From NCBI GenBank assembly GCA_018434685.1, contig JAHDOV010000004.1, positions 348,808 to 412,807 of the forward strand: a stretch of DNA of 64,000 nucleotides, written 5' to 3'. How positions within the stretch are numbered: the stretch's first letter is position 1; every line of letters begins with the position of its first letter. The translations under genes were made by a program, and so were the position numbers. The DNA is from Deltaproteobacteria bacterium (GTDB lineage: Bacteria; Desulfobacterota; Desulfomonilia; UBA1062). The notes beneath the pieces are model-generated. The model did not search any database and was not told the origin of the DNA. It worked only from the letters and a program-made list of their open reading frames with translations. This document shows positions 45,365 through 64,000 of the stretch, piece by piece.

Positions 45365-47727
45365 TCAATGATCGAGTTCGATCCTCGTCCTGCTGATGAT
45401 CTCCTGTTTCACCGTATCGGGGAGTTCATCGAAGTACGCACAGTACCCGGCCACCCGCACGACTATGCCGGGGTGCTTCCCGGGGTGCGCCCGTGCGTCG
45501 GCAAGCACCTCCGGATCAACGACATTGAGCTGCATCTCCATACCGCCCGATGCAAAGAACCCCTCGGTGAGCGCGGTCATGATTTGGAGACCCTTGGGCC
45601 CGGCAAGGGTTCCGGCATCGAAACGGAGGTTGAGCGCATACCCGTTGGCTGCCAGGGAGGAGTCCACCCGGGCCACGGAGTTCAGCAGGGCCGTGGGTCC
45701 TTGGCGGTCCACCCCGTTGCAGCACCCGAGCGATGCGGCCAGGGGCTCGTTGCTCCTCCTTCCACTCGGCAATGCCCCGGTGCGTTTGCCGAATCCCACG
45801 TGGGTCGACGATGAGTAGAATCCCGGGATGTAGGGTCCGCCCCTGGTGTTCGTGTACTTTGCCAGGGCGTCATGGAAGATGTGCGCAGTCAGGTCTGCAT
45901 ACCGGTCAGGAAGATCCTGATCATTGCCAAACTTGGGGGCTGCCCTGAGCTCTGCTCTGAGCATGTCCGCCCCGGTAAAGTCGTTCATCATGGCAGCGAT
46001 CACCTCGGGGAGGCTGTAGGACTGTTTTCTGAAGACAACCTCGTCGATGGCGGCAAGGGAATCGGCCACATCGGCCACGCCCACGCCCTGGATGCCGCTC
46101 GAGTTATACTGCGCCCCTCCGGCTGTCACGTCGCGGCCACTTTCCAGGCACCCTTGACCAGCATGGAGGAAAAAGGCGTGGGATGGAAGTCGCGGTTTGC
46201 CTTCTCGATAATCCGGATGTCCGTGATCAGGCGGCTCACCAGGTGATCCACCTGTGCCCTGAAGGCCTCGATGACATCGTCCATGGTCCTCAAGAGAGAC
46301 GGATCAGGGGTTTTGGCCCCGATCCCGAGCCTTTTGCCAGGTCTTCTGCCCCGATTCAGGGCAAGAATCAGGCACATGGGCAGATTGATCAGTGCCGCAT
46401 CGGTGGAGCAGAAGCTTCTGCCCGGCATGGTTGGCTCCACGCACCCCACCACCCCGTAATCGCGGGCCTCTTCGATGGTGTATCCATGGGCCGTGAGCGC
46501 GGCAATGGTGGCCTCATCATTGAACAGTCCCGGCACGGCGTTCCCTTTGCAGGCCACCTCCACGGCGCGCTTCACGTACTGCTCGGGTGAGACGTGGCTG
46601 ATCCGGGCCATGTAGTTGGGGTCGCGCAGGCCTGCCAGCTCCATGACGTCGAGGAACAACCAGGTCAGGTCGTTGACCGCATCGTTGCCCTTGCTGTTCA
46701 CGCCTCCCACCGTGGCTGCCTGGGCTACCAGGTACCCGCCGTGGTACTCGCTTACCCTGCTGGAGAGCAGGAACATGTGCTCGGTGGTCTTGGCTGAGAA
46801 GCACAGGAGCAGCTCCAGTGCCCTGTCCCTGCCAATTCTTCCGGCCTCCATGTCAGCTTTGTAGAAAGGATAGAGGTACTGGTCGATCCTGCCGAAGGAT
46901 ATGGCTGAATTCAGCCCCTCGAGGCAGACCGCCATGTGGGTGAGCCACAGCGACTGAAGGGCCTCCTGCAGTGTTTCTGCAGGTTCCAGGGGAACCTTTG
47001 CGCAGATGCGCGCGATTTCAAGGAGCTCCTGCTTCCGCACCGGGTCGCTCTCGCCGGCGGCGAGCCGACGTGCCTCGCCGGAGAGTCTGCCCGCGTAGGC
47101 GGCAAGGCCCTCGCAGGCGATGAGCGCGGCCGCGTGGAGGTCGCTTCCCTTCTCGTCGATCGTCTCCATGTAACCCTTGATGCCCTGTGTGATCATCCGG
47201 TCGTAGCCGGGCAGGAAGTGGCCGATGCCGCCGCTCTCATTGATGAGGTAGGATGAGGCATCCAGCTGCTTCAGCACGTAGCGGCCCAGCTTCGGGTTGT
47301 ACCATCCGAAGGCCCGGGACACCATGTTCCGGGTGAGCCAGTAGGGCAGCACCTTCACGAGGAGTGTCAGCTTGTCCCGCCAGGGTACGGGGTAGGGGTT
47401 GGTTTTCCTCCTGTCCATCCACAGGAGCTCCTCGCTCATGACCGCGCCGGCGAGTTCGGGCTGGATAATGGCTGACTTTCTCTTGCTTCCGACATTTCCG
47501 ACAATGAGTTCATCATCAAATATGGTAGCGGACTTGTTCTGCAGCAGATAGTTCAGTGCCCTGGCCTTGCGGATCACCATGGGCTCTTTCTTGTTGTCGT
47601 GTTTTTTGAAGAATTCGGTGACGAGTTCTGCCCGCTCGGTGCAGAGCATGACCGGGTTCGACAACAGTTCGTTTTTGATCCGGCTGAACCGTGCAGGTGT
47701 CTCTGACGATACCGCCATGTCTCTCAT
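45365..47727 (-). pseudogene. glycyl radical enzyme, PFL2 family (GRE-2), interrupted by an apparent 1-nt deletion in a G-run near 46150 (possible pseudogene or sequencing error)
   Basis: The N-terminal ORF 46126-47727 ends ...TPFSSMLVKGAWKVAAT*. The alternate frame over the same bases reads GCLESGRDVTAGGAQYN, a conserved GRE motif, and continues into ORF 45365-46129, which carries the glycyl radical motif RVAGY. A Cys-loop GCVE is present. Confidence 0.7.
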
Positions 47728-53474: not shown

Positions 53475-54401
53475 ATGTTTATGATGATGAAAAGAGCATT
53501 TGTGATTTCCCTGTTTGCGGCAATTATCGTTGGTGTATCAGGAATCCCTCTGCATGCCGGACAGATAGTGACCGATGATGTGCGTGTGTGGGCCCGCGAG
53601 GCGTTGGCGCAGGAAAAAGGCCTTGAAGCAGAGCCTGCCGGCAACACGCTTGCGGTGCTCTACTTTCACAACAGGTCCGGCAAGGCCTTGCTGAATCCGC
53701 TTCAGAAAGGGCTCGCCTTCATGCTCATGACGGATCTTTCCCAGGTGGACGGGCTCGTTCTCGTGGAGCGGGTGAAGCTGCAGGCATTGACAGAGGAAAT
53801 GGATCTGGGGATCTCCGGACTGGTGGACCCTGAATCGGCGCCGAAGGTAGGGCGGGTGCTGGGTGCCAGATTCCTCGTCGGCGGGGATCTTCAGGGCACG
53901 GCAGCTGAACTGGGCATAGCCTCCGATGTGCTGGAGGTGCCTGGCCAGCGGGTCGCGGGCAGCCCTTCGAGCAAGGGAGATCTTCCCGGGATATTTGCAA
54001 TGGAAAAGGAGCTTCTTTTTGCGATCATCTCCATCCTGAAGATAGAGCTCTCTGAGCAGAAAAAGCTGGAACTGGAAAAACCGTTTACCACGCAGATCGA
54101 TGCACTGTTCAACCTGATGTATGCGATAGACAGCGCTGACCGGGGTGATTATCTCAAGGCCGAGGCATACTATACTGAGGCGCTCCGGAAGGACCCGGGG
54201 CTTAATGCCGCCCAGGACGGACTGCAGGAGCTCAAGGATCTGAATCTGGTCGGATCTCATGACCGGAGCAAGGCCATGGCGGAGTCGTTGGAGGAAAGGA
54301 CGTCACAGACAAGCCGGTTAACCGATGATTATATCTCACGGAGAAACAGAAACCCCGGCGATAATCTGAAAACCGCAGGACGGATACGGGTGCAGTGGTG
54401 A
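53475..54401 (+). CDS. secreted CsgG/LpoB-like domain protein with C-terminal TPR-like region
   Basis: Signal peptide. LAVLYFHNRS...LVERVKLQALTEEMDLGISGLVD pattern shared with the lipoprotein at 63135-63626. C-terminal helical YYTEALRKDPGLNAAQDGL. Confidence 0.5.
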   Translation: MFMMMKRAFVISLFAAIIVGVSGIPLHAGQIVTDDVRVWAREALAQEKGLEAEPAGNTLAVLYFHNRSGKALLNPLQKGLAFMLMTDLSQVDGLVLVERVKLQALTEEMDLGISGLVDPESAPKVGRVLGARFLVGGDLQGTAAELGIASDVLEVPGQRVAGSPSSKGDLPGIFAMEKELLFAIISILKIELSEQKKLELEKPFTTQIDALFNLMYAIDSADRGDYLKAEAYYTEALRKDPGLNAAQDGLQELKDLNLVGSHDRSKAMAESLEERTSQTSRLTDDYISRRNRNPGDNLKTAGRIRVQW

Positions 54402-57400
54402 AAAAAAACAATAAGGCCATTGGTGTACTGTATGCTGTTGTATGTGCAAGCCTGTTCCTGATGTGTTCATGCAGCGGCAGCTCCGGCAGTGCGTCAGAAA
54501 ACGAGGGAACAGGGTCGATCGTATTCTCCCTTCAACTGCCGGCCGAACCTTTTTCCTCAGCAGACGGCAAGGATGTGCAATACAAGGCCGCTTCCATAGA
54601 CTGCGACAGGCTGGGGATCGTGAGCGTCGAGGCCCAAGTCTACGACGAACATGAAGAGCTGATCGCACAGGGCGGTCCGTGGGACTGCAGCCTCGGTGAA
54701 GGGATCATATACGGCATAAAGGCTGGAAACAACAGGACCGTTCTCCTCTTTCTCAGGGATGAAAACCACATAGTGCGCTATACCGGAAACAAGTCGGAAA
54801 TCAGAGTCATTGCAGGGCAGACAACAGATATAGGGACCATCATCGTTATCGAGGGGGAGGAAGAGGACAACCATGCCCCTGTGCTCACTGGCGGCGGCGT
54901 AACCCCTGAGGCAGGAGTTGCACAAGAGACCTTCACCTACTCGGTACATTACCGGGATATAGATGGCCACGCTGCCTCCCAGAGATCCGTCTATATAGAC
55001 GGCGCACCCTATACCATGAGTCTGACCAGCGGTGCCGGGTATGACGGTACGTATACCTACCGGACCACGCTGCCTGTGGACGATCACACCTACTATTTCG
55101 TATTCAACGACGGCTACGGCGGCACCGTCAGGCTGCCCGGTTCCGAGATGTATGCCGGGCCGCGCGTGCGTGCGGTAAACAATGACCCGGTAGCCGGAGA
55201 CGACCAAGCGAGTGCGGTCCGAGGCGGCAGGGTGGCGGATGGCTTGCTCGACAATGATTATGACCCTGACGATGACGATCTCCTGGTCAATACGACACCG
55301 GTAACAGGTCCTGATCACGGCAATGTGGTACTCAACCAGGACGGCACCTTTATCTACACCCATGACGGCAGCGAGACAGCGAGCGACAGCTTCACCTATG
55401 AGGTACGTGACGGCTGGGGCGGTTCGGCAACTGCCGTGGTAAGCATTTCCGTGTCACTGGACCCGCAGGACAACCATGCCCCTGTGCTCACTGGCGGCGG
55501 CGTAACCCCTGAGGCAGGAGCTGCACAAGAGACCTTCACCTACTCGGTACATTACCGGGATATAGATGGCCACGCTGCCTCCCAGAGATCCGTGTATATA
55601 GACGGCGCACCCTATACCATGAGCCTGAGCAGCGGTGCCGGGTATGACGGTACATATACCTACCGGACCACGCTGCCTGTGGACGATCACTCCTACTATT
55701 TCGTATTCAACGACGGCTACGGCGGCACCGTCAGGCTGCCCGGTTCCGAGATGTATGCCGGACCGCGCGTGCGTGCGGTAAACAATGACCCGGTGGCCGG
55801 GGACGACGAAGCGAGTGCAGTCCGCGGCGGCAGGGTGGCGCATCGCGTGCTCGACAATGATTATGACCCTGACGATGACGATCTCCTGGTCAATACGACA
55901 CCGGTAACAGGTCCTGATCACGGCAACCTGGTGCTCAACCAGGACGGGACCTTTGTCTACACCCATGACGGCAGCGAGACAGCGAGCGACAGTTTCACCT
56001 ATGAGGTCGGTGACGGCTGGGGCGGCTCGGCCTTTGCAACGGTGAGCATAACGGTTTCTTTGGACCCGCAGGACAACCATGCCCCGGTGCTCACTGGCGG
56101 GATCGTATCTCCGGGCGCGGGCGAGGTAACAGAGTCGTTCACGTATACGGTTTACTACAGTGATGTTGACGGTCATGCAGCACAGGAGAAATTTCTCTAC
56201 ATAGACGGCACACGCTATGACATGGTGCTGCTCGATGGAACTCCCTATGCCGGGACCTATGCCTATGAGACAGACCTGCCGCTTGGTTCCCATGAATACT
56301 ACTTCACGTTCACAGACGGCTATGGCGGATCGGCCAGCCTGCCCGAGTCAGGGGCATACCAGGGGCCGTGTGTTGTGGCCGTGGCATATTTTGTAGCATC
56401 CTCACGGGGAAGCGATGATTATGTCGGGTCTATTGCGTATCCGTTTGCAACGATCGGGCATGCCATCGATGCGGTACAGGGTAGTGGAGACAGCCCGGTT
56501 ACCATCTTTATCGCTCAGGGCAGCTATGCCGAGAATCTCGTCCTGGATTCCTGGGAATCGCTTTCCGGCGGCTGGCTCGATGATTTCAGCCGGCAGTGGG
56601 ATTTTGCCGGCAACGGGATCACGCCGGCACCTGAATACGAGACCGTCATTGACGGCGGGCAGGTAGGGAGATGTATTACCGCAGTCTCGGCCGAAGGTGT
56701 CAGCCTCAGCGGTGTGACCCTTTTTAACGGCAATGCCGGCGATTATCAAAAAGGCGGCTCTGCACTCTATCTTGGTTCCTGCTCAGCTGATATCGACTTC
56801 TGCACCATAGTGAACAACACCACCGTATCGGACAATGATATCCACGGCGGGGCAGTGTATAACGATGAGAGCAGCCCCACATTCTCCCGGTGTCTGTTTG
56901 CCGATAATGTAGTAACCGGACCACATATCAAACATGGAGGCGCTCTATATAATTACCGATCGTCTCCGCGCATTGTCGGATGTATTTTCAGGGATAACCA
57001 CGCCGGGTGCAACATGGGTGCCGGCGGGGCCATCTATAACCTTGAAAGCGACGCCGAGATCGTAGACTCTGTCTTTGCCGGAAACACCACCGGCGGATGC
57101 TACAGCTACGGGGCGGGGATATATAATGAATCGAGCGATCCCTTAATTACGAACTGCCTGTTCGTGGGGAATACGGCAACGGGCAGTTGTATCGCACGAG
57201 GGGGCGCTGTGTATAATCAATTAAGCAGCCCGAACATGACCAACTGCAGCTTCTCGCTCAATTCGGCATCAAATGCAGACGGGAACAGCAGGGGCGGCGG
57301 CATATACAATGATGCAGCCTCTGCACCGGTGATCACCAACTCTATACTCTGGGGAGACACGGCGCGACTGGGCAAGGAAATCTTCAACGAGGACTCCTCG

Positions 57401-57646
57401 ATATGCCGGGTCACCTACTGCGACATCGATCAGGACCTGACCGAGAGCGATATTGTTCACCACAATATTCGTGAAGCCCCGCTCTTTGTCGATGCCTCAG
57501 GCGGTGATCTGCACCTCGATGGCGAGTCACCCTGCATCGATGCGGGTACGAATGATGCGCCGTGGCTTTTGGAAACGGATTTCGAGGGAGATCCTCGGAT
57601 TGTGAATGAACATATCGATATGGGTGCAGATGAATATGTCGATTGA
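54395..57646 (+). CDS. large surface (lipo)protein: tandem about 201-aa repeats plus C-terminal right-handed beta-helix with Pmp-like GGA[ILV] / FxxN repeats
   Basis: GTG start overlapping the upstream stop. N-terminal signal with Cys cluster LFLMCSCSG. Two near-identical 603-bp repeats plus a divergent third, each with DNHAPVLTGGGVTPEAG and a cadherin/Ig-like segment (NNDPVAGDD...TFTYEV). The C-terminus has repeated GGAVYN/GGAIYN/GGALYN and FADN/FRDN/FAGN/FVGN/FSLN motifs. Confidence 0.7.
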   Translation: MVKKNNKAIGVLYAVVCASLFLMCSCSGSSGSASENEGTGSIVFSLQLPAEPFSSADGKDVQYKAASIDCDRLGIVSVEAQVYDEHEELIAQGGPWDCSLGEGIIYGIKAGNNRTVLLFLRDENHIVRYTGNKSEIRVIAGQTTDIGTIIVIEGEEEDNHAPVLTGGGVTPEAGVAQETFTYSVHYRDIDGHAASQRSVYIDGAPYTMSLTSGAGYDGTYTYRTTLPVDDHTYYFVFNDGYGGTVRLPGSEMYAGPRVRAVNNDPVAGDDQASAVRGGRVADGLLDNDYDPDDDDLLVNTTPVTGPDHGNVVLNQDGTFIYTHDGSETASDSFTYEVRDGWGGSATAVVSISVSLDPQDNHAPVLTGGGVTPEAGAAQETFTYSVHYRDIDGHAASQRSVYIDGAPYTMSLSSGAGYDGTYTYRTTLPVDDHSYYFVFNDGYGGTVRLPGSEMYAGPRVRAVNNDPVAGDDEASAVRGGRVAHRVLDNDYDPDDDDLLVNTTPVTGPDHGNLVLNQDGTFVYTHDGSETASDSFTYEVGDGWGGSAFATVSITVSLDPQDNHAPVLTGGIVSPGAGEVTESFTYTVYYSDVDGHAAQEKFLYIDGTRYDMVLLDGTPYAGTYAYETDLPLGSHEYYFTFTDGYGGSASLPESGAYQGPCVVAVAYFVASSRGSDDYVGSIAYPFATIGHAIDAVQGSGDSPVTIFIAQGSYAENLVLDSWESLSGGWLDDFSRQWDFAGNGITPAPEYETVIDGGQVGRCITAVSAEGVSLSGVTLFNGNAGDYQKGGSALYLGSCSADIDFCTIVNNTTVSDNDIHGGAVYNDESSPTFSRCLFADNVVTGPHIKHGGALYNYRSSPRIVGCIFRDNHAGCNMGAGGAIYNLESDAEIVDSVFAGNTTGGCYSYGAGIYNESSDPLITNCLFVGNTATGSCIARGGAVYNQLSSPNMTNCSFSLNSASNADGNSRGGGIYNDAASAPVITNSILWGDTARLGKEIFNEDSSICRVTYCDIDQDLTESDIVHHNIREAPLFVDASGGDLHLDGESPCIDAGTNDAPWLLETDFEGDPRIVNEHIDMGADEYVD
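54866..56390 (+). repeat. 603-bp tandem repeat (2 near-identical copies plus 1 divergent partial copy) inside the large surface protein gene
   Basis: Copy 1 at 54866-55468 and copy 2 at 55469-56071 differ by only scattered SNPs. Copy 3 from 56072 is diverged. All in frame (201 aa). Confidence 0.85.
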
Positions 57647-57674
57647 AATGAACAGTGAAGGGAACTCATCCATT

Positions 57675-58826
57675 ATGAGCAGATACCAGGGCAGCCCGTG
57701 CAATGTATTAATCAGGCAGATAGCGTTAATCCTGTTTATCGTCTTTTCCGGCGCAGGAGTTGTCTGTGCCTCCGGGAATACCATGTCAAGCGGATTTCAC
57801 TATGACTGGTGGGATAGTGACGAGGGTGATAAAGGGATGCAGTTGTACCTCCCGATACAGGCCGCCTCAGAGTATCGAGGGGTTTCTTTCGAGGTGCTCA
57901 CTGCCTATGCATACACCCGGGTCGATCCTTCCGGCGGCTCGAAGCGGTCTTTGAGCGATTTTGTGGACACAAAGGTGAATTTCGCCTATCCCCTCGAGGG
58001 AAGATACGGCTGTGATATCGTCTTTGGGCTCGGGTTCAATCTGCCCACCGGTCACACGGACCTGAGCACCAGGGATCTGGTGCTTGTTGTCCCTCCTGAT
58101 CTCATGTCCATCAACTCCTTCGGGGAGGGGCTGAACATGAATCCCCGAGTCAGCATCGCCAGGCAGTGGGGAAAGCTCGTGGCAGGGATAGGCCTGGGAT
58201 ATGCCTGGCGCGGTGAATATGACTACAGTGACGGTGTCGAGGATTACGACCCGGGCGAGATATTCACCCTGACCGGTGAGGCTGCCTATGAGTTTTCTCC
58301 CCAGTGGTATGGTAAGGCCTACGGGGAATATGAATCCTTCAGCAAGGACACCGTCGATGGAGATGATTATTACCAGGAAGGCGATGTAACGCTCATGGGC
58401 CTCGGGCTGAGCTATGTCCAGCCTGCATGGGACCTGGGCTTGAGCCTGACCGGCATCTTCAGGGACAAGAGCAAAATACAGCAGGGCACCATCGTGCCCA
58501 CGGAAGCGAAAAACAGCCATGGCGATGAGTGGATAGCAGCAATTGTATACCGGTATTTTCAGGACAAGGACACCACGGTGAGCACGTCACTGGAATATCT
58601 TTCTTTGCAGGAAAACGACTATGATGCGAGCTCCCTGTACTACATCGGCAAGAGGCAGAAGATCACGCTCGGGTGCATGGTAAGCAAGATTTTGAAAAAA
58701 GATCTCGAGGCCTCGGCAGAGATAAAGGGATTCATCATGGATGATGAGAAGAACTGGTATCACCCGGGTGAGGACTATAGCTACAGGGGATTTTCGCTGG
58801 GGGCTTCGGTAACCAAGGGCTTTTAG
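57675..58826 (+). CDS. outer-membrane beta-barrel protein
   Basis: Signal peptide MSRYQGSPCNVLIRQIALILFIVFSGAGVVCASG. Aromatic-rich alternating strands. C-terminal ...GASVTKGF with terminal Phe. Confidence 0.6.
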   Translation: MSRYQGSPCNVLIRQIALILFIVFSGAGVVCASGNTMSSGFHYDWWDSDEGDKGMQLYLPIQAASEYRGVSFEVLTAYAYTRVDPSGGSKRSLSDFVDTKVNFAYPLEGRYGCDIVFGLGFNLPTGHTDLSTRDLVLVVPPDLMSINSFGEGLNMNPRVSIARQWGKLVAGIGLGYAWRGEYDYSDGVEDYDPGEIFTLTGEAAYEFSPQWYGKAYGEYESFSKDTVDGDDYYQEGDVTLMGLGLSYVQPAWDLGLSLTGIFRDKSKIQQGTIVPTEAKNSHGDEWIAAIVYRYFQDKDTTVSTSLEYLSLQENDYDASSLYYIGKRQKITLGCMVSKILKKDLEASAEIKGFIMDDEKNWYHPGEDYSYRGFSLGASVTKGF

Positions 58827-58894: not shown

Positions 58895-59086
58895 TTTTAT
58901 GTTACTTTCTTTGCGTGCACAAGAGAAAGTAACCAAAGAAATGCACCCCGCGAAGCCGCCCTTCGGGTTCGTTCGCTCACTCGGGAAAAATCAGCTCGCA
59001 ATTAAACTCGCTCCATTTCATTACGCTCAGACAGAATTGCTCGTTTTTCTGATTTTTCCCTCCCTCGCTCACCGGCTTCAAGGGGA
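58895..59086 (+). repeat. about 190-bp structured repeat, left copy, inverted relative to 62711-62908
   Basis: About 85-90% identical to the reverse complement of 62711-62908. Contains a terminal 10-bp-stem hairpin (58901-58933), a CCC-UUCG-GGG hairpin and a GGGAAAAATCAG...CTGATTTTTCCC long stem. The listed ORF 58899-59129 is an artefact. Confidence 0.8.
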
Positions 59087-59295
59087 CCCGGGGTTCAGCG
59101 CTGAAATTCACTGTCTGGAAAAGAATTAGCTACCATCAATACCGGTGCACATAACCATGGGAGATATGGATCAGGTCATGTTGCTTAAAAGTAAATAGTC
59201 GTCGCAGATATATGCATTTTGTAACATGTCGATCACCGTGGCTGAAAGCCGTCCGTTGGTTTGCCTTGTTGGATTACAATTTGGCTGTCTTCACC

Positions 59296-61692
59296 TCATG
59301 TTTCAAAGCCTTCTTTATCTCTTTCCGATCTTTTGCTGGTAAGCTTTCTCCTGCGCTTTTTTCTCTCTGCGTCACTCCACTCAGACCACGAAGGGAGGTT
59401 AAGATAGAGTTGTAGAGTGGCGTCGGCAAGCAAATTGAGTTCTCTCAAATCATAATCGCGCTCACTATAGCGATCGTACAAACCACCTTTATCTTTCCAA
59501 GCCTCTCCGATACTATGGGAAAAAAGTTCCATGCCCGTCAACACAATAACATGGCTGCTCACTTTTCTATTCAATCTTTTCCTTCGTTCAGAAAGTGCCA
59601 GATTTCGTATCATCTTTACTTCTGATTCCTCTAATGCATTGTTGAGCGTTGCGAAGACCAGCGCAGCTCCAGGAAAAGCAACGGCCAAGTCCTTCATTCG
59701 GTCTATGTCCTTGCGTTCGAATTTATTGAAACTCTTACACTCTGCATGAACGATGTAGGTCCCCTTCTTGCGCCATGTAGATGGCTTGTATAGGCAGGTG
59801 AAATCTGCCTCTAAACGTTTCCCGTCTTTCTCCGCTATATAACTAAAAAGAGGAGTGACAAAACGATCAAAATCACCACCCAATAGCCTGAGAGTAAGCA
59901 GAACCGTAAAAGCTCCTTGGGCAACGGACCCTGCGAAGGGACCATGAGCCCGGTATGTCCATTGAATATTTTTAGGAGACTTCAGTGGTGGTGAGTAGTC
60001 AGAGAGACAGAAACGACAGCGTAGTTCATAGTCGAGCTCATTTAGTTGATACCAATTGTAGCGCGTACACACAGGACATTGAACTTTAGCCCCTAACCTC
60101 AAGGCGTTTACGGACAGCAATCCTTCCAGAAAGCGTTCAGCATCGTAGAATAGTCCGTCTGACTGGATAACTTGTTTAAGCTTCGCTACGACCGCCTGGT
60201 AAGGTTTTCCAGCTTCTTTCTCCAACTCCCCAAGCAACTCTACAACGCCATAGTGGGCGAGTTGCGAAATGCCGTAAACACCGCCGAGCTGCTTCAAAAG
60301 CTGTTTTGCGATTCTTCCAGGTCCAGATAAGGATACTTTCCAACCTCGTTCTCGAAACCAATGGGTCATGACTTTCTCAGATCGAGGTAGGTCGAGGAAT
60401 ATCAAATCCCTGTAATTGTGTGCTAAAAAAACAGGGCCAAATTTCGAAAATCGCCAATTGAAGTAACCTAGGTTTCCTATTGCTGAGGACAATTCTCGGC
60501 TTCCTTCAGGAAAAACCTCGGCTAGGGGCTCCTTTGATGTGAAAAATCGAAAGCTGAATTCGTTGGCAAATTTAGGTTTGCCTGAGTAATCTTGAAATAC
60601 GTCGATTTCCGGATCTTGCGACCGCAGCTCCAGTCTCTCCTCGCCCTCAGTGATTCTTCGCTCCTCCTCGTAGGCAAAGGGAAAAGCGATGTCCTCGCCG
60701 GGCACGTTGTCGCGCGCCCAGGCATCCCATAAGCGAGGATACCACCACTGAAGTAGGTACTGATCAGGTTTCGGGATATTTAGCGAGTGGCAAAAATCTT
60801 TGACCAAATCCTCTGAAAGCGAACGGGACCTCTGGACTGTGGTGTGGTAAAACATTTCAGGATTGTGCCTATAAGGCTGATAATTTTTTTCGATGAAGTT
60901 CAAGGCAAATGCCTTTACGCTGGCCATGTTCGCGACCTGGATGGGGATCGGAATCACATTGACGCCTGCAGCTCGCAGATTCCAGTAGTCGATTACGTCT
61001 TGGGCACTTGTTGCGTCGCAAACGAACAAAGTGGGGTTGCGAAGAGGTTTTTCCTGTAATGCCCAAGAGCTTAACCTTCGAGGAAATAGGTTAGGTGACT
61101 TCAGAATGTCAAGAAGCTTGCTCAGAGTTACTTGGCTTTTTGAAATGCCCGGATGGGTAAGGAAATGCTCGTCGATGATCTTCTGGGCTGTCTTCGGAAG
61201 CACGCCAAAGACACTTGCTAAGAAGAGACGGTAGGCTCGCGGTAATTCAAGAAAAATGACCTGGAGATCATCATTTCTCTTGTATTTCAGCTCTTTCTTG
61301 ATGAAATCATTCAGTAAATCGATCAACCCGATGCCGTATGTGGGGGTTACTGAGTTTTCTAAAGCTCCAATCAATTCATCAGCGTTAATGATGTCTCGAT
61401 TACCCACCTGAAACACACGATTTGCGCAACTACCAATGGGTACCACCAGATCGGGGTCAAACCCGGTTAAGTATCCTTCAACAATCTCCGAAGGAAGTGG
61501 AAGATGCCGAACACGATGAGCCTCCCATTTGACAGGAGTACGACGGTAAACCGGAATTATTGGATTATAACTTCCACCCCAAAGGAAAGTGCTGAGTTCG
61601 ATAGCGCGGAAAAGCCCCACACGATCTGCGGGATCAACCAGAAATCCCACTCTTAAGGGTCGTACTTTAATGTTTATGTTTCCCGAAGCCAC
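59296..61692 (-). CDS. large uncharacterised protein (798 aa) with zinc ribbon and putative PD-(D/E)xK nuclease-like C-terminal motif; candidate defence/mobile-element protein
   Basis: GTG start at 61690-61692. C-x2-C-x17-C-x2-C (CPVCTRYNWYQLNELDYELRCRFC). D...ExK candidate (EADFTCLYK...TYIVHAECKSF). Lower GC than the flanking genes. No similarity to any family I recognise. Confidence 0.6.
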   Translation of the reverse strand: MASGNINIKVRPLRVGFLVDPADRVGLFRAIELSTFLWGGSYNPIIPVYRRTPVKWEAHRVRHLPLPSEIVEGYLTGFDPDLVVPIGSCANRVFQVGNRDIINADELIGALENSVTPTYGIGLIDLLNDFIKKELKYKRNDDLQVIFLELPRAYRLFLASVFGVLPKTAQKIIDEHFLTHPGISKSQVTLSKLLDILKSPNLFPRRLSSWALQEKPLRNPTLFVCDATSAQDVIDYWNLRAAGVNVIPIPIQVANMASVKAFALNFIEKNYQPYRHNPEMFYHTTVQRSRSLSEDLVKDFCHSLNIPKPDQYLLQWWYPRLWDAWARDNVPGEDIAFPFAYEEERRITEGEERLELRSQDPEIDVFQDYSGKPKFANEFSFRFFTSKEPLAEVFPEGSRELSSAIGNLGYFNWRFSKFGPVFLAHNYRDLIFLDLPRSEKVMTHWFRERGWKVSLSGPGRIAKQLLKQLGGVYGISQLAHYGVVELLGELEKEAGKPYQAVVAKLKQVIQSDGLFYDAERFLEGLLSVNALRLGAKVQCPVCTRYNWYQLNELDYELRCRFCLSDYSPPLKSPKNIQWTYRAHGPFAGSVAQGAFTVLLTLRLLGGDFDRFVTPLFSYIAEKDGKRLEADFTCLYKPSTWRKKGTYIVHAECKSFNKFERKDIDRMKDLAVAFPGAALVFATLNNALEESEVKMIRNLALSERRKRLNRKVSSHVIVLTGMELFSHSIGEAWKDKGGLYDRYSERDYDLRELNLLADATLQLYLNLPSWSEWSDAERKKRRRKLTSKRSERDKEGFET

Positions 61693-61841
61693 ATTCTCTC
61701 ATCTTTCTGATTATTGAAATGCTCATAAAGCCAGGTGGTAATCCTGGACTAACATATTCAAGGACCCGACGTAGGCATAAGCAGCACAAGCGCATCCCGC
61801 GTTGATCTGCTTGCATTTGATCGGCCTTTTAAAAAACCCAT

Positions 61842-61880
61842 TCAGGCGGGGCGAGGGGGGAATCGAACCCCCCGCGCTTA
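61842..61880 (-). other. tRNA 3'-half-like fragment (T-arm GGGGG-TTCGATT-CCCCC plus acceptor 3' strand); no complete cloverleaf
   Basis: Minus-strand sequence gcgcGGGGGGTTCGATTCCCCCCCTCGCCCCgcc. No plausible 5' acceptor partner sits within tRNA distance (nearest is about 117 nt upstream). Confidence 0.4.
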
Positions 61881-62153
61881 CTCCCATATATAAAAGGTGA
61901 AAGTCACAGCAACTCATCCGTTCCCCTGTAGGGTTGTAGATCGCCCCAGCAGCGCTCCCCCCGCCACTACACAAATCAATTTGATAGTTGTTCCCATTTT
62001 GACCTCCATTCTCGTCTTAATCTCAATAGCTAAGCTCCCAACTATTTGGATTAATAACGATAGGCCCAATATGAACCCAACTAGGAACACATATGATTCG
62101 ATGTAACTGACACCTATACATGGGCATCCTTTACATAATTCAGATAAATAACT

Positions 62154-62393
62154 TTATTCTCTTGGGAGTAGATCTTTTGCATTCCGGGATGGAATAGGCA
62201 GCCCTTTTTCTTTCAGGTGATCAATAAGACGCTGCTCATAAGGCGGAGCCCAGCCATCCCAGTTACCCTCATAACAAGACATGCAGACAGAAATGTTATA
62301 ACTCTTAATGTATCTTCCATCATACACATGTGGGCCCATTTGAAATTGCCCATCACAAATAAAACATTTATCCATGAACTTCTTTTCAGACAT
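62154..62393 (-). CDS. small zinc-ribbon protein (79 aa) in a very AT-rich segment
   Basis: Internal start MSEKKFMDKCFICDG...CMSCYEG (two CxxC pairs) with GGAGGA RBS 5 nt upstream. Surrounding 61.98-62.70 kb is conspicuously AT-rich. Confidence 0.5.
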   Translation of the reverse strand: MSEKKFMDKCFICDGQFQMGPHVYDGRYIKSYNISVCMSCYEGNWDGWAPPYEQRLIDHLKEKGLPIPSRNAKDLLPRE

Positions 62394-62710
62394 GTGTCCT
62401 CCAATGCCTAAATGCAGAAAGATACTATGCAGATAAAAAGGTTGCATATGGGCTGTTAGCTAAGCAAATGCAGATATAAAACAACAAGCTCATAACACCT
62501 TTCAATAAATTCAATTAATCTTAATATTATATCATTATCTGCAAATTAATGTCCATATGTTTCCTCAACGGCATAAAGTAGAAGATTATAGATCCCGTGC
62601 CAATATGTTCCATAACCCAAGAATGCACATAATCATTAGAGACCTATTGCCTCTCTTGGTGATATGTTTTGAGAGATCATAGCTGAATAACTCAGCACCA
62701 GAACCAATTC

Positions 62711-62908
62711 CCCCTTGAAGCCGGCGAGGGAGTGCAGGAAAAATCCGAAAGACGAGCAATTTTGTCTGAGCGGAATGAAATGGAGCGAGTTTAATTGCGA
62801 GCGGATTTTTCCTGTGCGAGTGAGCGTACTCCGCTGGAAGCGGAGCGGCTTCGCGGGGGTGCATTTCTTTGGTTACTTTCTTTCGTGCAAGCAAAGAAAG
62901 TAACATAA
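62711..62908 (-). repeat. about 190-bp structured repeat, right copy (inverted)
   Basis: Reverse complement aligns with 58895-59086. The stems are maintained by compensatory changes (CAGGAAAAATCCG...CGGATTTTTCCTG; CTCCGC-ttcca-GCGGAG). The listed ORF 62586-62906 is an artefact. Confidence 0.8.
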
Positions 62909-63011
62909 ATACATATAGATAGAATCAAGCTATCGATTAAATAGGCCCTTTAGTAAAGTGACATAGGTAACACTCTAAAAAAATAGATTTGAAAGAACAC
63001 CCTCCTATGGG

Positions 63012-63047
63012 AAATAAAAAAGGGGACCTTGTTGAAAGGCCCCCTTG
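63012..63047 (-). terminator. probable terminator hairpin downstream of the CsgG-like lipoprotein gene
   Basis: gaaataaaaaa-GGGGACCTTgttgAAAGGCCCCC; on the minus strand the hairpin is followed by TTTTTTATTTC. Confidence 0.45.
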
Positions 63048-63134
63048 TGTTCTTCAAATGCTCTACTAAGGTTTATCTACAAATCTTCTTCTACGAAAGG
63101 CCCCTATGCCTCCATATTAAACAACCCATTGTGT

Positions 63135-63626
63135 TCAGAACAACTCCAGTGCCGCACCCCTGGCCGCATCGAGCCAGGCCGATATCCCGGTCTCCGTTGT
63201 GGTCTTCTGCGCCGCACGCACGATCTTGCCGGTGCTGACATCCACGAGCCGCAGGTCGATGCGCATGGTCTCGCCGAGCACCTGAAAGGCACCGAACACC
63301 ATCTGCTGTGCCCCTGCCATCTTTCCGATTCGGAGCCTGGTGTTCTCGTCTGCAAGGTCCGACGATCCGAGGTTCAGCTCCTCGAGCACGAGGAGCAGTT
63401 GCTGGCGTTCCACCACCTGGTACGATCCTTTGTCACTGATCGTCTCCATCACCCCGGAGGTGAGGATCTGCCCCAGGGCCTCTCGGGAAGAGTCATCGTA
63501 ACTCAGATTCTCCAGATCCCAGACAGCGATGGTAGCCGGGCCGGTCTGCGTCGGGGTTGTTGCACACCCTGAAAACAGGATCAGGAAGACCAAGGAGGTC
63601 CAGAACAAAGCGCGCTTTGAGAGCAT
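63135..63626 (-). CDS. CsgG/LpoB-like lipoprotein
   Basis: Internal start MLSKRALFWTSLVFLILFSGC (lipobox) with AGGGATAAGGG RBS. IAVWDLENLS...VVERQQLLLVLEELNLGSSDL pattern like the 53475 gene. Confidence 0.6.
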   Translation of the reverse strand: MLSKRALFWTSLVFLILFSGCATTPTQTGPATIAVWDLENLSYDDSSREALGQILTSGVMETISDKGSYQVVERQQLLLVLEELNLGSSDLADENTRLRIGKMAGAQQMVFGAFQVLGETMRIDLRLVDVSTGKIVRAAQKTTTETGISAWLDAARGAALELF

Positions 63627-63630
63627 ACCC

Positions 63631-64000
63631 TTATCCCTCAGTGAGCGTCTTGTCGATCTTTTCCACTGCCTTGTCATCACGCTTGAGGGGCCGCTCCTGG
63701 TCGATTATCCTGCAGTAGGAAAGGTCCGGTTCAACGATTGTTACCTCGAGCCCGGCAATGTTCTTCGCTGCCTGCTGAAGTTTCTTTCCCTTGTATTCGA
63801 TGGGCTCCTGTTCTTCGATAACCCCGAATCTGCTGCCCATGACCACCCCCTGGTTTGATCCGAGGTTGATCATGACCTTGTCTCCGGTCACATTCACCAC
63901 ATAGGCCTGCAGGGGGTAGGTCGTCATGACCGTCGTGAGGATTTCCCTGTTGAGCTTGTGAAGATCTTTCTTCAGCGTGGCATCGGTGCTTAATTCCCGG
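63631..64000 (-). CDS. partial CDS (C-terminal part; gene continues beyond window end), hypothetical periplasmic protein
   Basis: Frame open from 64000 to the stop at 63631. The ORF-track start at 63927 is only the first in-window ATG. Ends 4 nt before the lipoprotein start. Confidence 0.5.
   Translation of the reverse strand, partial: RELSTDATLKKDLHKLNREILTTVMTTYPLQAYVVNVTGDKVMINLGSNQGVVMGSRFGVIEEQEPIEYKGKKLQQAAKNIAGLEVTIVEPDLSYCRIIDQERPLKRDDKAVEKIDKTLTEG

Follow-up and report, generated by a model that had tools for sequence, protein, structure and literature searches.

In a 64,000-nucleotide (nt) stretch of contig JAHDOV010000004.1 from a Deltaproteobacteria bacterium (the window), three genes on the same strand, here called ORF1, ORF2, and ORF3, encode a TolB-N/LpoB/CsgG-like protein with TPR-like helices, a large lipoprotein with internal repeats and a β-helix, and an outer-membrane β-barrel. 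Judged by its conserved gene neighborhood, this trio does not stand alone as a surface-protein locus but belongs, as one arm, to a cluster that comprises more than 10 genes. The cluster is widespread in relatives of sulfate reducers and has so far not been described. The interpretation that we favor, at roughly even chances, is that the trio represents the outer-membrane arm of an undescribed envelope sensing and display module, conserved in Desulfobacterota and Nitrospirota, that carries a polymorphic surface lipoprotein. Sequence comparison establishes the association of the genes, the link between the N-terminal domain of ORF2 (N-domain) and the module, and the recombination history of ORF2. 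The original prediction for this DNA, an adhesin-like lipoprotein in an operon with a CsgG/LpoB-like TPR protein and a separate outer-membrane barrel, was supported.

With the barrel as query, 80 genome loci from Desulfobacterota and Nitrospirota were fetched with flanks of 8 to 10 kb. An ORF1 homologue was located directly upstream of the barrel gene in nearly all of them. In about half of the loci the barrel gene followed ORF1 directly; in the others a gene encoding 250 to 1700 amino acids (aa) stood between the two, and in most cases its product had only the N-domain in common with ORF2. Genes encoding an N-domain were also found just after the barrel gene or just before ORF1. When all open reading frames of the 80 loci were clustered, more conserved families emerged. 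Directly after the barrel gene, on the opposite strand, lies the gene of a CsgG/FlgO/LpoB-like lipoprotein of 163 to 185 aa (small lipoprotein). This convergent arm further encodes a secreted protein of ~650 aa with an AhpC/TSA fold, TPRs, and CsgG/LpoB-like and FlgT_C-like domains, a Hanks-type Ser/Thr kinase of ~395 aa in which a transmembrane (TM) helix (~287-307) is followed by a periplasmic PEGA domain, a secreted Trypsin_2 protease, a PP2C phosphatase, and, divergently, a double-FHA protein. Among the 53 loci with at least 7 kb of downstream sequence, 36 had the small lipoprotein and the 650-aa protein, 30 the protease, 26 the kinase, and 23 the PP2C phosphatase, counts that are limited by flank length. 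Where it was present (43 loci), the small-lipoprotein gene mostly abutted the barrel gene, at a distance of no more than ~115 bp. Because of the signal peptides, the lipoboxes, and the TM helix of the kinase, the parts are predicted to cover the whole envelope, with an outer-membrane barrel, two lipoproteins and three secreted proteins, a kinase that crosses the inner membrane, and PP2C and FHA proteins in the cytoplasm.

The window ends within the convergent arm (Table 1), and its continuation was obtained from the Logan contig L101 of the same strain, which is identical to the window at 1201 of 1201 nt and extends past the window end. L101 encodes exactly the same small lipoprotein and a 650-aa protein whose tail is identical to the translation of positions 63631-64000, and it carries the genes for the PEGA kinase, the Trypsin_2 protease, the PP2C phosphatase, and the FHA protein. 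The FHA gene is followed there by genes for a fused VipA/VipB sheath-like protein, a 258-aa protein, a Tox-PAAR-like protein, a DUF3540 protein, and a 676-aa protein. Kinase, PP2C phosphatase, and FHA protein were encoded together on L101 and in 23 to 30 other loci. Cultured Desulfosarcina strains carry the core module as well (L044 and L055), so that it is open to experiments, and a vWA-FHA protein was found in Desulfosarcina. D. widdelii PP31 and D. alkanivorans PL12 are such cultured carriers, and a relative of Geobacter has an N-domain gene.

The diagnostic part of ORF2 is the N-domain and not the repeats or the β-helix. This domain of ~130 aa had no Pfam match at E ≤ 10, and an exhaustive search with clustering at 50% identity yielded 635 representatives at E ≤ 1e-3. 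It is almost always N-terminal, starting at residue 25 to 50 behind a lipobox, in proteins of 130 to 1755 aa, and the family alignment indicates a lipoprotein tether of 10 to 20 residues. From this alignment, C26 (LMCSC) is most likely the lipidated cysteine of ORF2. The window contains a single copy of the domain. In a reverse test, metagenomes were scanned by the N-domain pattern alone (GGPWxC[SDT]xGE, which samples closer relatives only), and an ORF1 homologue and/or the barrel was adjacent in 16 of 17 loci, the one exception being a contig of 1150 bp. Since the ORF1 homologue or the barrel adjoins in 16 of these 17 independently fetched loci, the N-domain is, by this synteny, a private handle of the gene cluster, and what follows it in ORF2 is an exchangeable passenger. 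Passengers found behind the N-domain include He_PIG, fn3, CARDB, and DUF1565/β-helix domains and, in one arrangement, 13 PKD domains together with an RCC1 propeller. ORF2 is an optional and highly variable accessory of the module core.

The passenger in the window ends in a right-handed β-helix, for which a signature of GGA[IVL]YN and FxxN repeats as in chlamydial polymorphic membrane proteins (Pmp) had been proposed. This assignment was confirmed by the Pfam family Chlam_PMP, which matched the C-terminal 424 aa (residues 660-1083) in three stretches with 30.9 bits (cut-off 20.6) when this region was scanned alone; in the scan of full-length ORF2 the score was 17.8 bits. DUF1565 reached 20.1 bits on the β-helix (cut-off 20.3). 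Residues 1039-1081 match the choice-of-anchor Q domain (NF041518, choice_anch_Q) with 29.2 bits versus a cut-off of 25; ORF2 ends two residues past this domain, with no C-terminal sorting signal after it. As predicted, no autotransporter barrel is fused to ORF2: the Pfam scan gave no Autotransporter family at E ≤ 0.1, and a type Va autotransporter was rejected on this ground. A check for a known non-adhesin enzyme family at the C-terminus likewise gave no pectate-lyase or epimerase family match at E ≤ 0.1, and an enzyme of the pectate-lyase type was rejected. A sequence search of ORF2 against the PDB found no relatives.

Upstream of the β-helix, ORF2 contains a repeat array that had been described as two almost identical 201-aa modules plus a diverged third with about 97% nucleotide identity. 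Two 603-bp units are indeed present, each composed of an A domain (~100 aa, without a Pfam family at E ≤ 10) and a B domain of the Big_9/Cadherin type (two Pfam matches in ORF2), but the third copy consists of the A half only, and the measured identity of units 1 and 2 is 93.9% (566 of 603 nt, without any indel). Tandem Repeats Finder misses the array, its longest period being 500, and a direct-repeat search and a script were used instead. Identity between the two units amounts to 97.3% in the A half and 93.8% in the head of the B domain, but to just 75% in the last 60 nt; the 37 differences comprise 21 synonymous and 16 non-synonymous ones. With the window's own domains as queries, the layout of ORF2 is N-A-B-A-B-A-H (H, β-helix), an order unique among ~210 family members, which usually show N-(B-A)n-H with n = 1 to 3 or runs of A. 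The differing layouts across the family mean that module number varies between lineages.

The nearest orthologues of ORF2, encoded on four independent contigs, have 990 aa, are ~85% identical, and show the architecture N-B-A-B-A-H; their two B domains have a mere 77% DNA identity to each other. Both B heads of the window are nearer to the second B domain of the orthologue (76 to 79%) than to the first (63%), the values for unit 1 being 76% and 63%. The B tail of unit 1, in contrast, is 85% identical to the first B domain of the orthologue and 72% to the second, whereas that of unit 2 is 77% identical to the second and 68% to the first. Between the two A copies of the window the identity is 97.3%, and with the first A domain of the orthologue they share 79%. 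Because its B head resembles the second and its B tail the first B domain of the orthologue, unit 1 is, by these identities, a recombinant mosaic and not the product of simple duplication. At the level of DNA comparison this demonstrates a recent non-reciprocal exchange, later than the split of the lineages, in which the head of the first B domain was overwritten by a copy of A and the larger part of the second. Of the two origins proposed originally, a very recent duplication or homologous recombination, it is therefore recent recombination that applies and not simple duplication.

The mosaic relation of unit 1 to the orthologues also rules out a simple duplication by the assembly. An assembly artefact was rejected, and the array is genuine, as the copies differ at 37 in-frame positions, show no indels, and have a mosaic orthology. 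A short-read contig of the same strain (Logan SRR13787007, 11418 of 11419 nt identical) stops at position 54893, 30 nt into the repeat, which is the behavior of a true repeat in short reads. The suggestion that the repeats could give phase variation was not supported: the 603-nt unit is in frame, and unequal exchange would therefore alter the size of the protein and not switch its expression on or off. The mosaic repeat would fit a module that is exposed and diversifies rapidly.

ORF1 possesses a signal peptide (cleavage at about LHA/GQ) without a lipobox cysteine and is predicted to be a secreted periplasmic protein. It comprises a TolB-N/LpoB/CsgG-like α/β domain (residues ~58-168), a TPR-like helical region (170-278), and a disordered tail, and an AlphaFold2 (AF2) model with a predicted local distance difference test score (pLDDT) of 78 has the same three parts. 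Foldseek related the α/β domain to the TolB N-domain, LpoB, GNA1162, the CsgG pre-pore, FlgT, PelC, and the periplasmic domain of CadC. The Pfam matches were CsgG (8e-8), covering model positions 13-97 of 210, and a weak TPR_2. ORF1 is not a CsgG channel, because the Pfam match stops at position 97 of 210 and the AF2 model contains no CsgG-type TM hairpins; the ordinary signal peptide without lipobox also argues against it. The LpoB equivalog TIGR02722 gave 14.9 bits for ORF1 and 22 bits for the small lipoprotein, compared to a cut-off of 110.55, and PADLOC returned no match for ORF1. That CsgG-like proteins flank the region (53475 and 63135) stands insofar as both have Pfam CsgG matches, but that of ORF1 is partial and the second gene lies on the minus strand. 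The proposed check of signal-peptide types revealed lipoboxes in ORF2 (C26) and in the small lipoprotein (LFSGC), but an ordinary signal peptide in ORF1.

The disordered tail of ORF1 (residues 278-308) closes with the pattern G-x-x-x-V-x-W, which is conserved in the family and whose aromatic end resembles the C-termini of outer-membrane proteins. Of the 49 loci that lack a strong N-domain protein, 28 had an extended ORF1 protein (at least 330 aa), versus 3 of the 17 loci that have one, a trend that we rate as weak support (Fisher p = 0.006, not corrected for phylogeny). The C-terminal extensions are thrombospondin type 3 (TSP_3) or MopE-like metal-binding repeats in up to 10 copies; examples from loci without an N-domain lipoprotein are L023:5504-7963, L066:4429-7866, L013:6083-7912, and L044:6745-7905.

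The separately encoded outer-membrane barrel had been predicted correctly. ORF3 carries a signal peptide (VCA/SG) and a C-terminal Phe, and its AF2 model (pLDDT 91.5) is a plain β-barrel with ~16 strands, a count based on how turns (2 to 4 residues) and long loops alternate in the secondary-structure string. Conservation within the family is highest in NLPTG...FGEGxNxNP (residues 122-157), the long third external loop, which, going by the secondary-structure string and not by coordinates, would sit where general porins have their constriction loop. Foldseek returned generic barrels only (FadL, AlgE, and porins, TM-score 0.40 to 0.48), and there was no Pfam (E ≤ 0.1), NCBIfam, or PADLOC match; a sequence search of the PDB with the barrel profile found no relatives. 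We collected 127 barrel homologues from Desulfobacterota and Nitrospirota; ~20 of 120 had a weak precomputed PF13557 (Phenol_MetA_deg) match, and one was named "transporter". The question whether the barrel belongs to a type 5/two-partner or a CsgG-like family was answered in the negative: no POTRA, ShlB, TPS, or autotransporter domain was found, and a CsgG-like channel was not supported either. Two-partner secretion (type Vb) was rejected for a 383-aa barrel without POTRA, ShlB, or Bac_surface_Ag and an ORF2 without a TPS domain (Haemagg_act).

The three genes form one operon. It had been stated that they overlap or abut one another; they are co-directional and ORF1 and ORF2 overlap, but ORF3 abuts ORF2, and the overlap listed for it resulted from the choice of start codon. 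ORF2 has two candidate GTG starts, at 54395 and 54398, the latter giving a GTGA overlap with the stop codon of ORF1. A mechanical list of open reading frames let ORF3 begin at 57606, inside ORF2. The ATG at 57675, 29 nt past the ORF2 stop, is preceded by a GAAGGGAA ribosome-binding site and followed by a typical signal peptide, and the nearest ORF3 homologue has 384 aa; for these reasons this ATG is most likely the start. A scan for promoters and terminators gave background level only. The 53 kb upstream of the trio in the window contain housekeeping and metabolic genes and no genes of a type VI secretion system (T6SS).

Table 1. Features of the trio and of the convergent arm within the window
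Feature	Position	Strand	Description
ORF1	53475-54401	+	308 aa; end ...RVQW-TGA
ORF2	54395-57646	+	1083-aa lipoprotein, architecture N-A-B-A-B-A-β-helix
N-domain of ORF2 (residues 26-156)	54470-54862	+	Two conserved cysteines, GGPWxC motif
Repeat unit 1	54864-55466	+	A domain (no Pfam family), then B domain (Big_9/cadherin-like); recombinant mosaic by sequence comparison
Repeat unit 2	55467-56069	+	A + B; 93.9% identity with unit 1
Third, diverged A domain (half unit)	56070-56369	+	64% nt identity with unit 1
Right-handed β-helix	56375-57643	+	GGAxYN and CxFxxN coils; Pfam Beta_helix 2.4e-9
ORF3	57675-58826	+	Outer-membrane β-barrel, 383 aa
Small CsgG/FlgO/LpoB-like outer-membrane lipoprotein	63135-63626	-	163 aa, LFSGC lipobox; Pfam CsgG 6e-16, FlgO, LpoB
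C-terminal 123 codons of the 650-aa protein gene	63631-64000	-	Frame open to window end

T6SS genes were frequent neighbors of the cluster beyond the FHA gene. In 13 of the 19 non-redundant loci with sequence beyond it, this genome included, the FHA gene is adjoined by a T6SS hallmark gene, the genes found beside it being those for VipA/VipB, VgrG, PAAR-like proteins, and ClpV. On the unrelated metagenome contig L090, for example, it is flanked by genes for ClpV, VgrG, and a DUF4280 protein. T6SS gene content was read within the 8- to 10-kb flanks, which are too short for a complete set including TssJ/L/M. The sheath-like protein of the strain itself (L101:2252-3823, ~6 to 8 kb past the right end of the window) is one polypeptide of 523 aa with VipA (6-93) and VipB (233-422) regions, and in 12 loci the FHA gene is followed by a gene for a homologue of this protein, of 385 to 550 aa. 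On L103 the sheath-like gene is followed by that of an FHA-GAF protein and not by classical T6SS genes.

We propose the following mechanism for the module. ORF1 and the barrel would form an outer-membrane complex to which the N-domain docks the lipoprotein, and the passengers, which are interchangeable and consist in ORF2 of cadherin/Ig modules and a β-helix of Pmp repeats, may be displayed on the surface as a binding or contact element, as their domain types suggest. By analogy to TagQRST-PpkA-Fha1 and TslA/OmpA, events at the display element would be relayed via the periplasmic scaffold proteins and the protease to the kinase/FHA switch, which could control a T6SS in most genomes (PMC13584744, PMC9251886). 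A more far-reaching version takes the locus as the antenna of a new T6SS contact-sensing pathway leading from the adhesin via scaffold and protease, PEGA kinase, and FHA protein to T6SS assembly. In it, the polymorphic, recombining adhesin lipoprotein would be kept at the surface by the barrel and ORF1 and would signal binding or a disturbance of the envelope, and the FHA protein, as target of the kinase, would trigger assembly; we regard this version as doubtful.

Several points weigh against the proposal of a sensing and display module. It is drawn entirely from gene neighborhood and predicted folds, and the 80 loci are phylogenetically non-independent and were seen within limited flanks. 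Surface exposure of the ORF2 passenger would follow from domain types only, the choice-of-anchor Q domain among them. About half of the loci have no N-domain lipoprotein, so that the core must work without it. In 6 of the 19 loci the FHA gene has other neighbors (YgbB, PfkB, a HEAT-repeat protein, FHA-GAF-HisKA, and an FHA-sigma54 activator), and the link to T6SS is thus frequent but not obligatory. Finally, if the third loop of the barrel is porin-like as predicted, it argues against a wide protein-conducting lumen.

The same evidence can be read in terms of stand-alone export and anchoring of a surface lipoprotein according to a Slam/T11SS-like logic, in which ORF1 and the barrel translocate or hold the lipoprotein, and kinase, FHA protein, and T6SS are mere neighbors. 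The strict synteny of the N-domain with ORF1 and the barrel, the extracellular-type passengers with the choice-of-anchor Q domain, the unrelated DNA between the trio and the convergent arm in the window and in close relatives, and the loci showing no kinase arm within the flank agree with this explanation. We nevertheless consider it unlikely: ORF1 and barrel occur without an N-domain lipoprotein in about half of the loci, and lipoprotein export can therefore not be their only role; the convergent arm lies within ~115 bp of the barrel in most of the 43 loci carrying the arm; neither DUF560 nor another translocator family was matched; and the conserved loop 3 of the barrel is porin-like. Alternatively, the lipoprotein could face inward and be part of a periplasmic scaffold, a ring or anchor such as a T6SS membrane-complex anchor or a cell-wall tether, with no sensing or display. 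Proteins with the TolB-N/CsgG/PelC/FlgT fold typically make periplasmic rings beneath the outer membrane, FlgT_C and FlgO matches are present, T6SS genes are adjacent, and the lipoprotein tether of 10 to 20 residues is short. Cadherin, PKD, fn3, He_PIG, and Pmp-repeat passengers with a rapid turnover between genomes would, however, be unusual for periplasmic structural proteins, which makes this explanation quite improbable.

Two further explanations concern the barrel in other functions. A TPR protein, a PelC-like domain, and a barrel are also the ingredients of Pel/alginate-type exopolysaccharide export, with the β-helix lipoprotein as a polysaccharide-modifying enzyme; Foldseek led from ORF1 to PelC and PelBC and from the barrel to AlgE (TM-score 0.46 to 0.48), and AlgG-type epimerases and lyases have a β-helix fold. 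Yet no glycosyltransferase or synthase family is among the neighbors conserved across the 80 loci, the middle proteins often have fn3, PKD, He_PIG, or CARDB domains in place of a β-helix, ORF2 shows none of the lyase or epimerase families searched for above, and the structural matches of the barrel are generic, so that we judge such a function highly unlikely. It is just as improbable that ORF3 is an ordinary porin or a channel for hydrophobic compounds (COG4313/Phenol_MetA_deg-like) that neighbors an unrelated adhesin gene by chance. The weak PF13557 matches, the name "transporter" of one homologue, and the 16-strand porin-like layout with its conserved loop 3 are in line with it, but the barrel of the window has no Pfam match at E ≤ 0.1, and a general porin would not be expected to keep ORF1 and the convergent arm as invariant neighbors in two phyla.

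Under the sensing and display interpretation, the closest parallel is the threonine phosphorylation pathway TagQRST-PpkA-PppA-Fha1 of the Pseudomonas aeruginosa H1-T6SS (PMC13584744). As in this pathway, envelope accessories are encoded beside a PP2C phosphatase, an FHA protein, and a Hanks kinase that sits in the membrane and has a periplasmic domain; in 13 of the 19 loci a T6SS hallmark gene is adjacent. Unlike TagQRST, none of the envelope proteins here is homologous to TagQ, TagR, TagS, or TagT, the conserved neighbors include neither an ABC transporter nor a TagR of the FGE-sulfatase type, and the kinase ectodomain is PEGA; in addition, the module contains a β-barrel, three TolB-N-like proteins, a trypsin-like protease, and a variable lipoprotein. 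The module shares the kinase/PP2C/FHA logic with the pathway but none of its envelope components. CsgG, TolB, PEGA, and barrel components are not mentioned in a 2026 review of T6SS accessory factors (PMC13584744), and our literature searches, whose incomplete coverage provides absence of evidence only, turned up no account of a module built with such parts. TslA/TagM1 with OmpA mediates the contact-dependent placement of T6SS assembly (PMC9251886; PMC13584744). There, too, cell contact is proposed to be reported to the T6SS by an outer-membrane barrel together with a protein that is periplasmic or anchored in the outer membrane, but that system has no kinase and no variable adhesin-like lipoprotein, and the likeness is one of proposed role.

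In Slam/type 11 secretion (T11SS) a TPR part and a DUF560 barrel are combined in one polypeptide (PMC5449769, PMC8406197). The encoding of a periplasmic TPR part and a barrel beside a variable lipoprotein cargo is similar here in logic, not by homology: the two parts are separate proteins, the barrel has ~16 strands compared to the 14 of DUF560 and no DUF560 match, and the phyla are different. T11SS cargo is recognized via a C-terminal barrel domain according to the literature, whereas recognition here would be via an N-terminal domain. In Myxococcus gliding, CglB and the GltABHK outer-membrane module (PMC9946355) likewise combine an outer-membrane lipoprotein adhesin with dedicated barrels in a deltaproteobacterial-type envelope machine, a likeness of arrangement; CglB is a vWA protein and the machine a motility apparatus, unlike the module here. 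With chlamydial Pmp proteins (type Va), ORF2 shares the GGA[ILV]/FxxN coils and a Chlam_PMP match above cut-off in its C-terminal region. It differs from them in being a lipoprotein without an autotransporter β-domain, in the C-terminal position of the helix behind Ig/cadherin modules, and in its choice-of-anchor Q end. The CsgG/LpoB/TolB N-domain/PelC fold is common to ORF1, the small lipoprotein, and the 650-aa protein, but ORF1, unlike CsgG, is not lipidated and has no TM hairpins. Neither curli (CsgA/B/E/F) nor Pel genes are among the conserved neighbor families. By its sequence features the locus does not qualify as type Va or type Vb secretion, as a CsgG or LpoB system, as Slam/T11SS, or as an export system of the Pel/alginate type.

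Some further observations were made at these loci. Between the barrel and the small lipoprotein the window contains an insert of ~4.3 kb with lower GC content (58900-63100; 39 to 49% versus 52 to 61% around it), which carries an open reading frame of 798 aa (59296-61692, minus strand) without a Pfam, NCBIfam, or PADLOC match. A different insert (BrnT toxin and small open reading frames) is present at the same spot in the close relative L001, and L101 ends inside the insert, at window position 62800. In the one 650-aa protein inspected (L101:8044-9996), the AhpC/TSA-like domain has TSRPS where the CxxC of a thioredoxin fold is expected, and by this sequence it is probably not redox-active. In L079:7974-11463 the ORF1-barrel pair is duplicated in tandem, with barrels of 416 and 418 aa and a second ORF1 copy split into two open reading frames. 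At positions 46151-46154, far upstream of the trio, the window reads CCC where the same-strain short-read contig L102 has CCCC. The difference splits the gene of a 787-aa PFL-like glycyl-radical enzyme into open reading frames of 254 and 533 aa (45365-46129 and 46126-47727, minus strand), which looks like a long-read homopolymer error or a recent pseudogene.

These results define a family of N-domain lipoproteins (more than 600 clusters at 50% identity) that can now be searched for, as can the barrel family, which had no Pfam model. The mosaic repeat of ORF2 provides a concrete example of how an adhesin-like protein is diversified by intragenic recombination. To our knowledge, almost nothing is known about the control of T6SS firing outside Proteobacteria, and the known envelope sensors TagQRST, TslA, and RtkS are each limited to a few genera. 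As a conserved coupling of a barrel, TolB-N-like scaffold proteins, a protease, and a variable surface lipoprotein to a kinase/FHA switch, the module would be a new candidate input device for the T6SS of environmentally dominant anaerobes. If the contact-sensing pathway sketched above is true, the module would match TagQRST or TslA in function although none of its parts are the same, and it would be widespread among anaerobic members of the Desulfobacterota and Nitrospirota.

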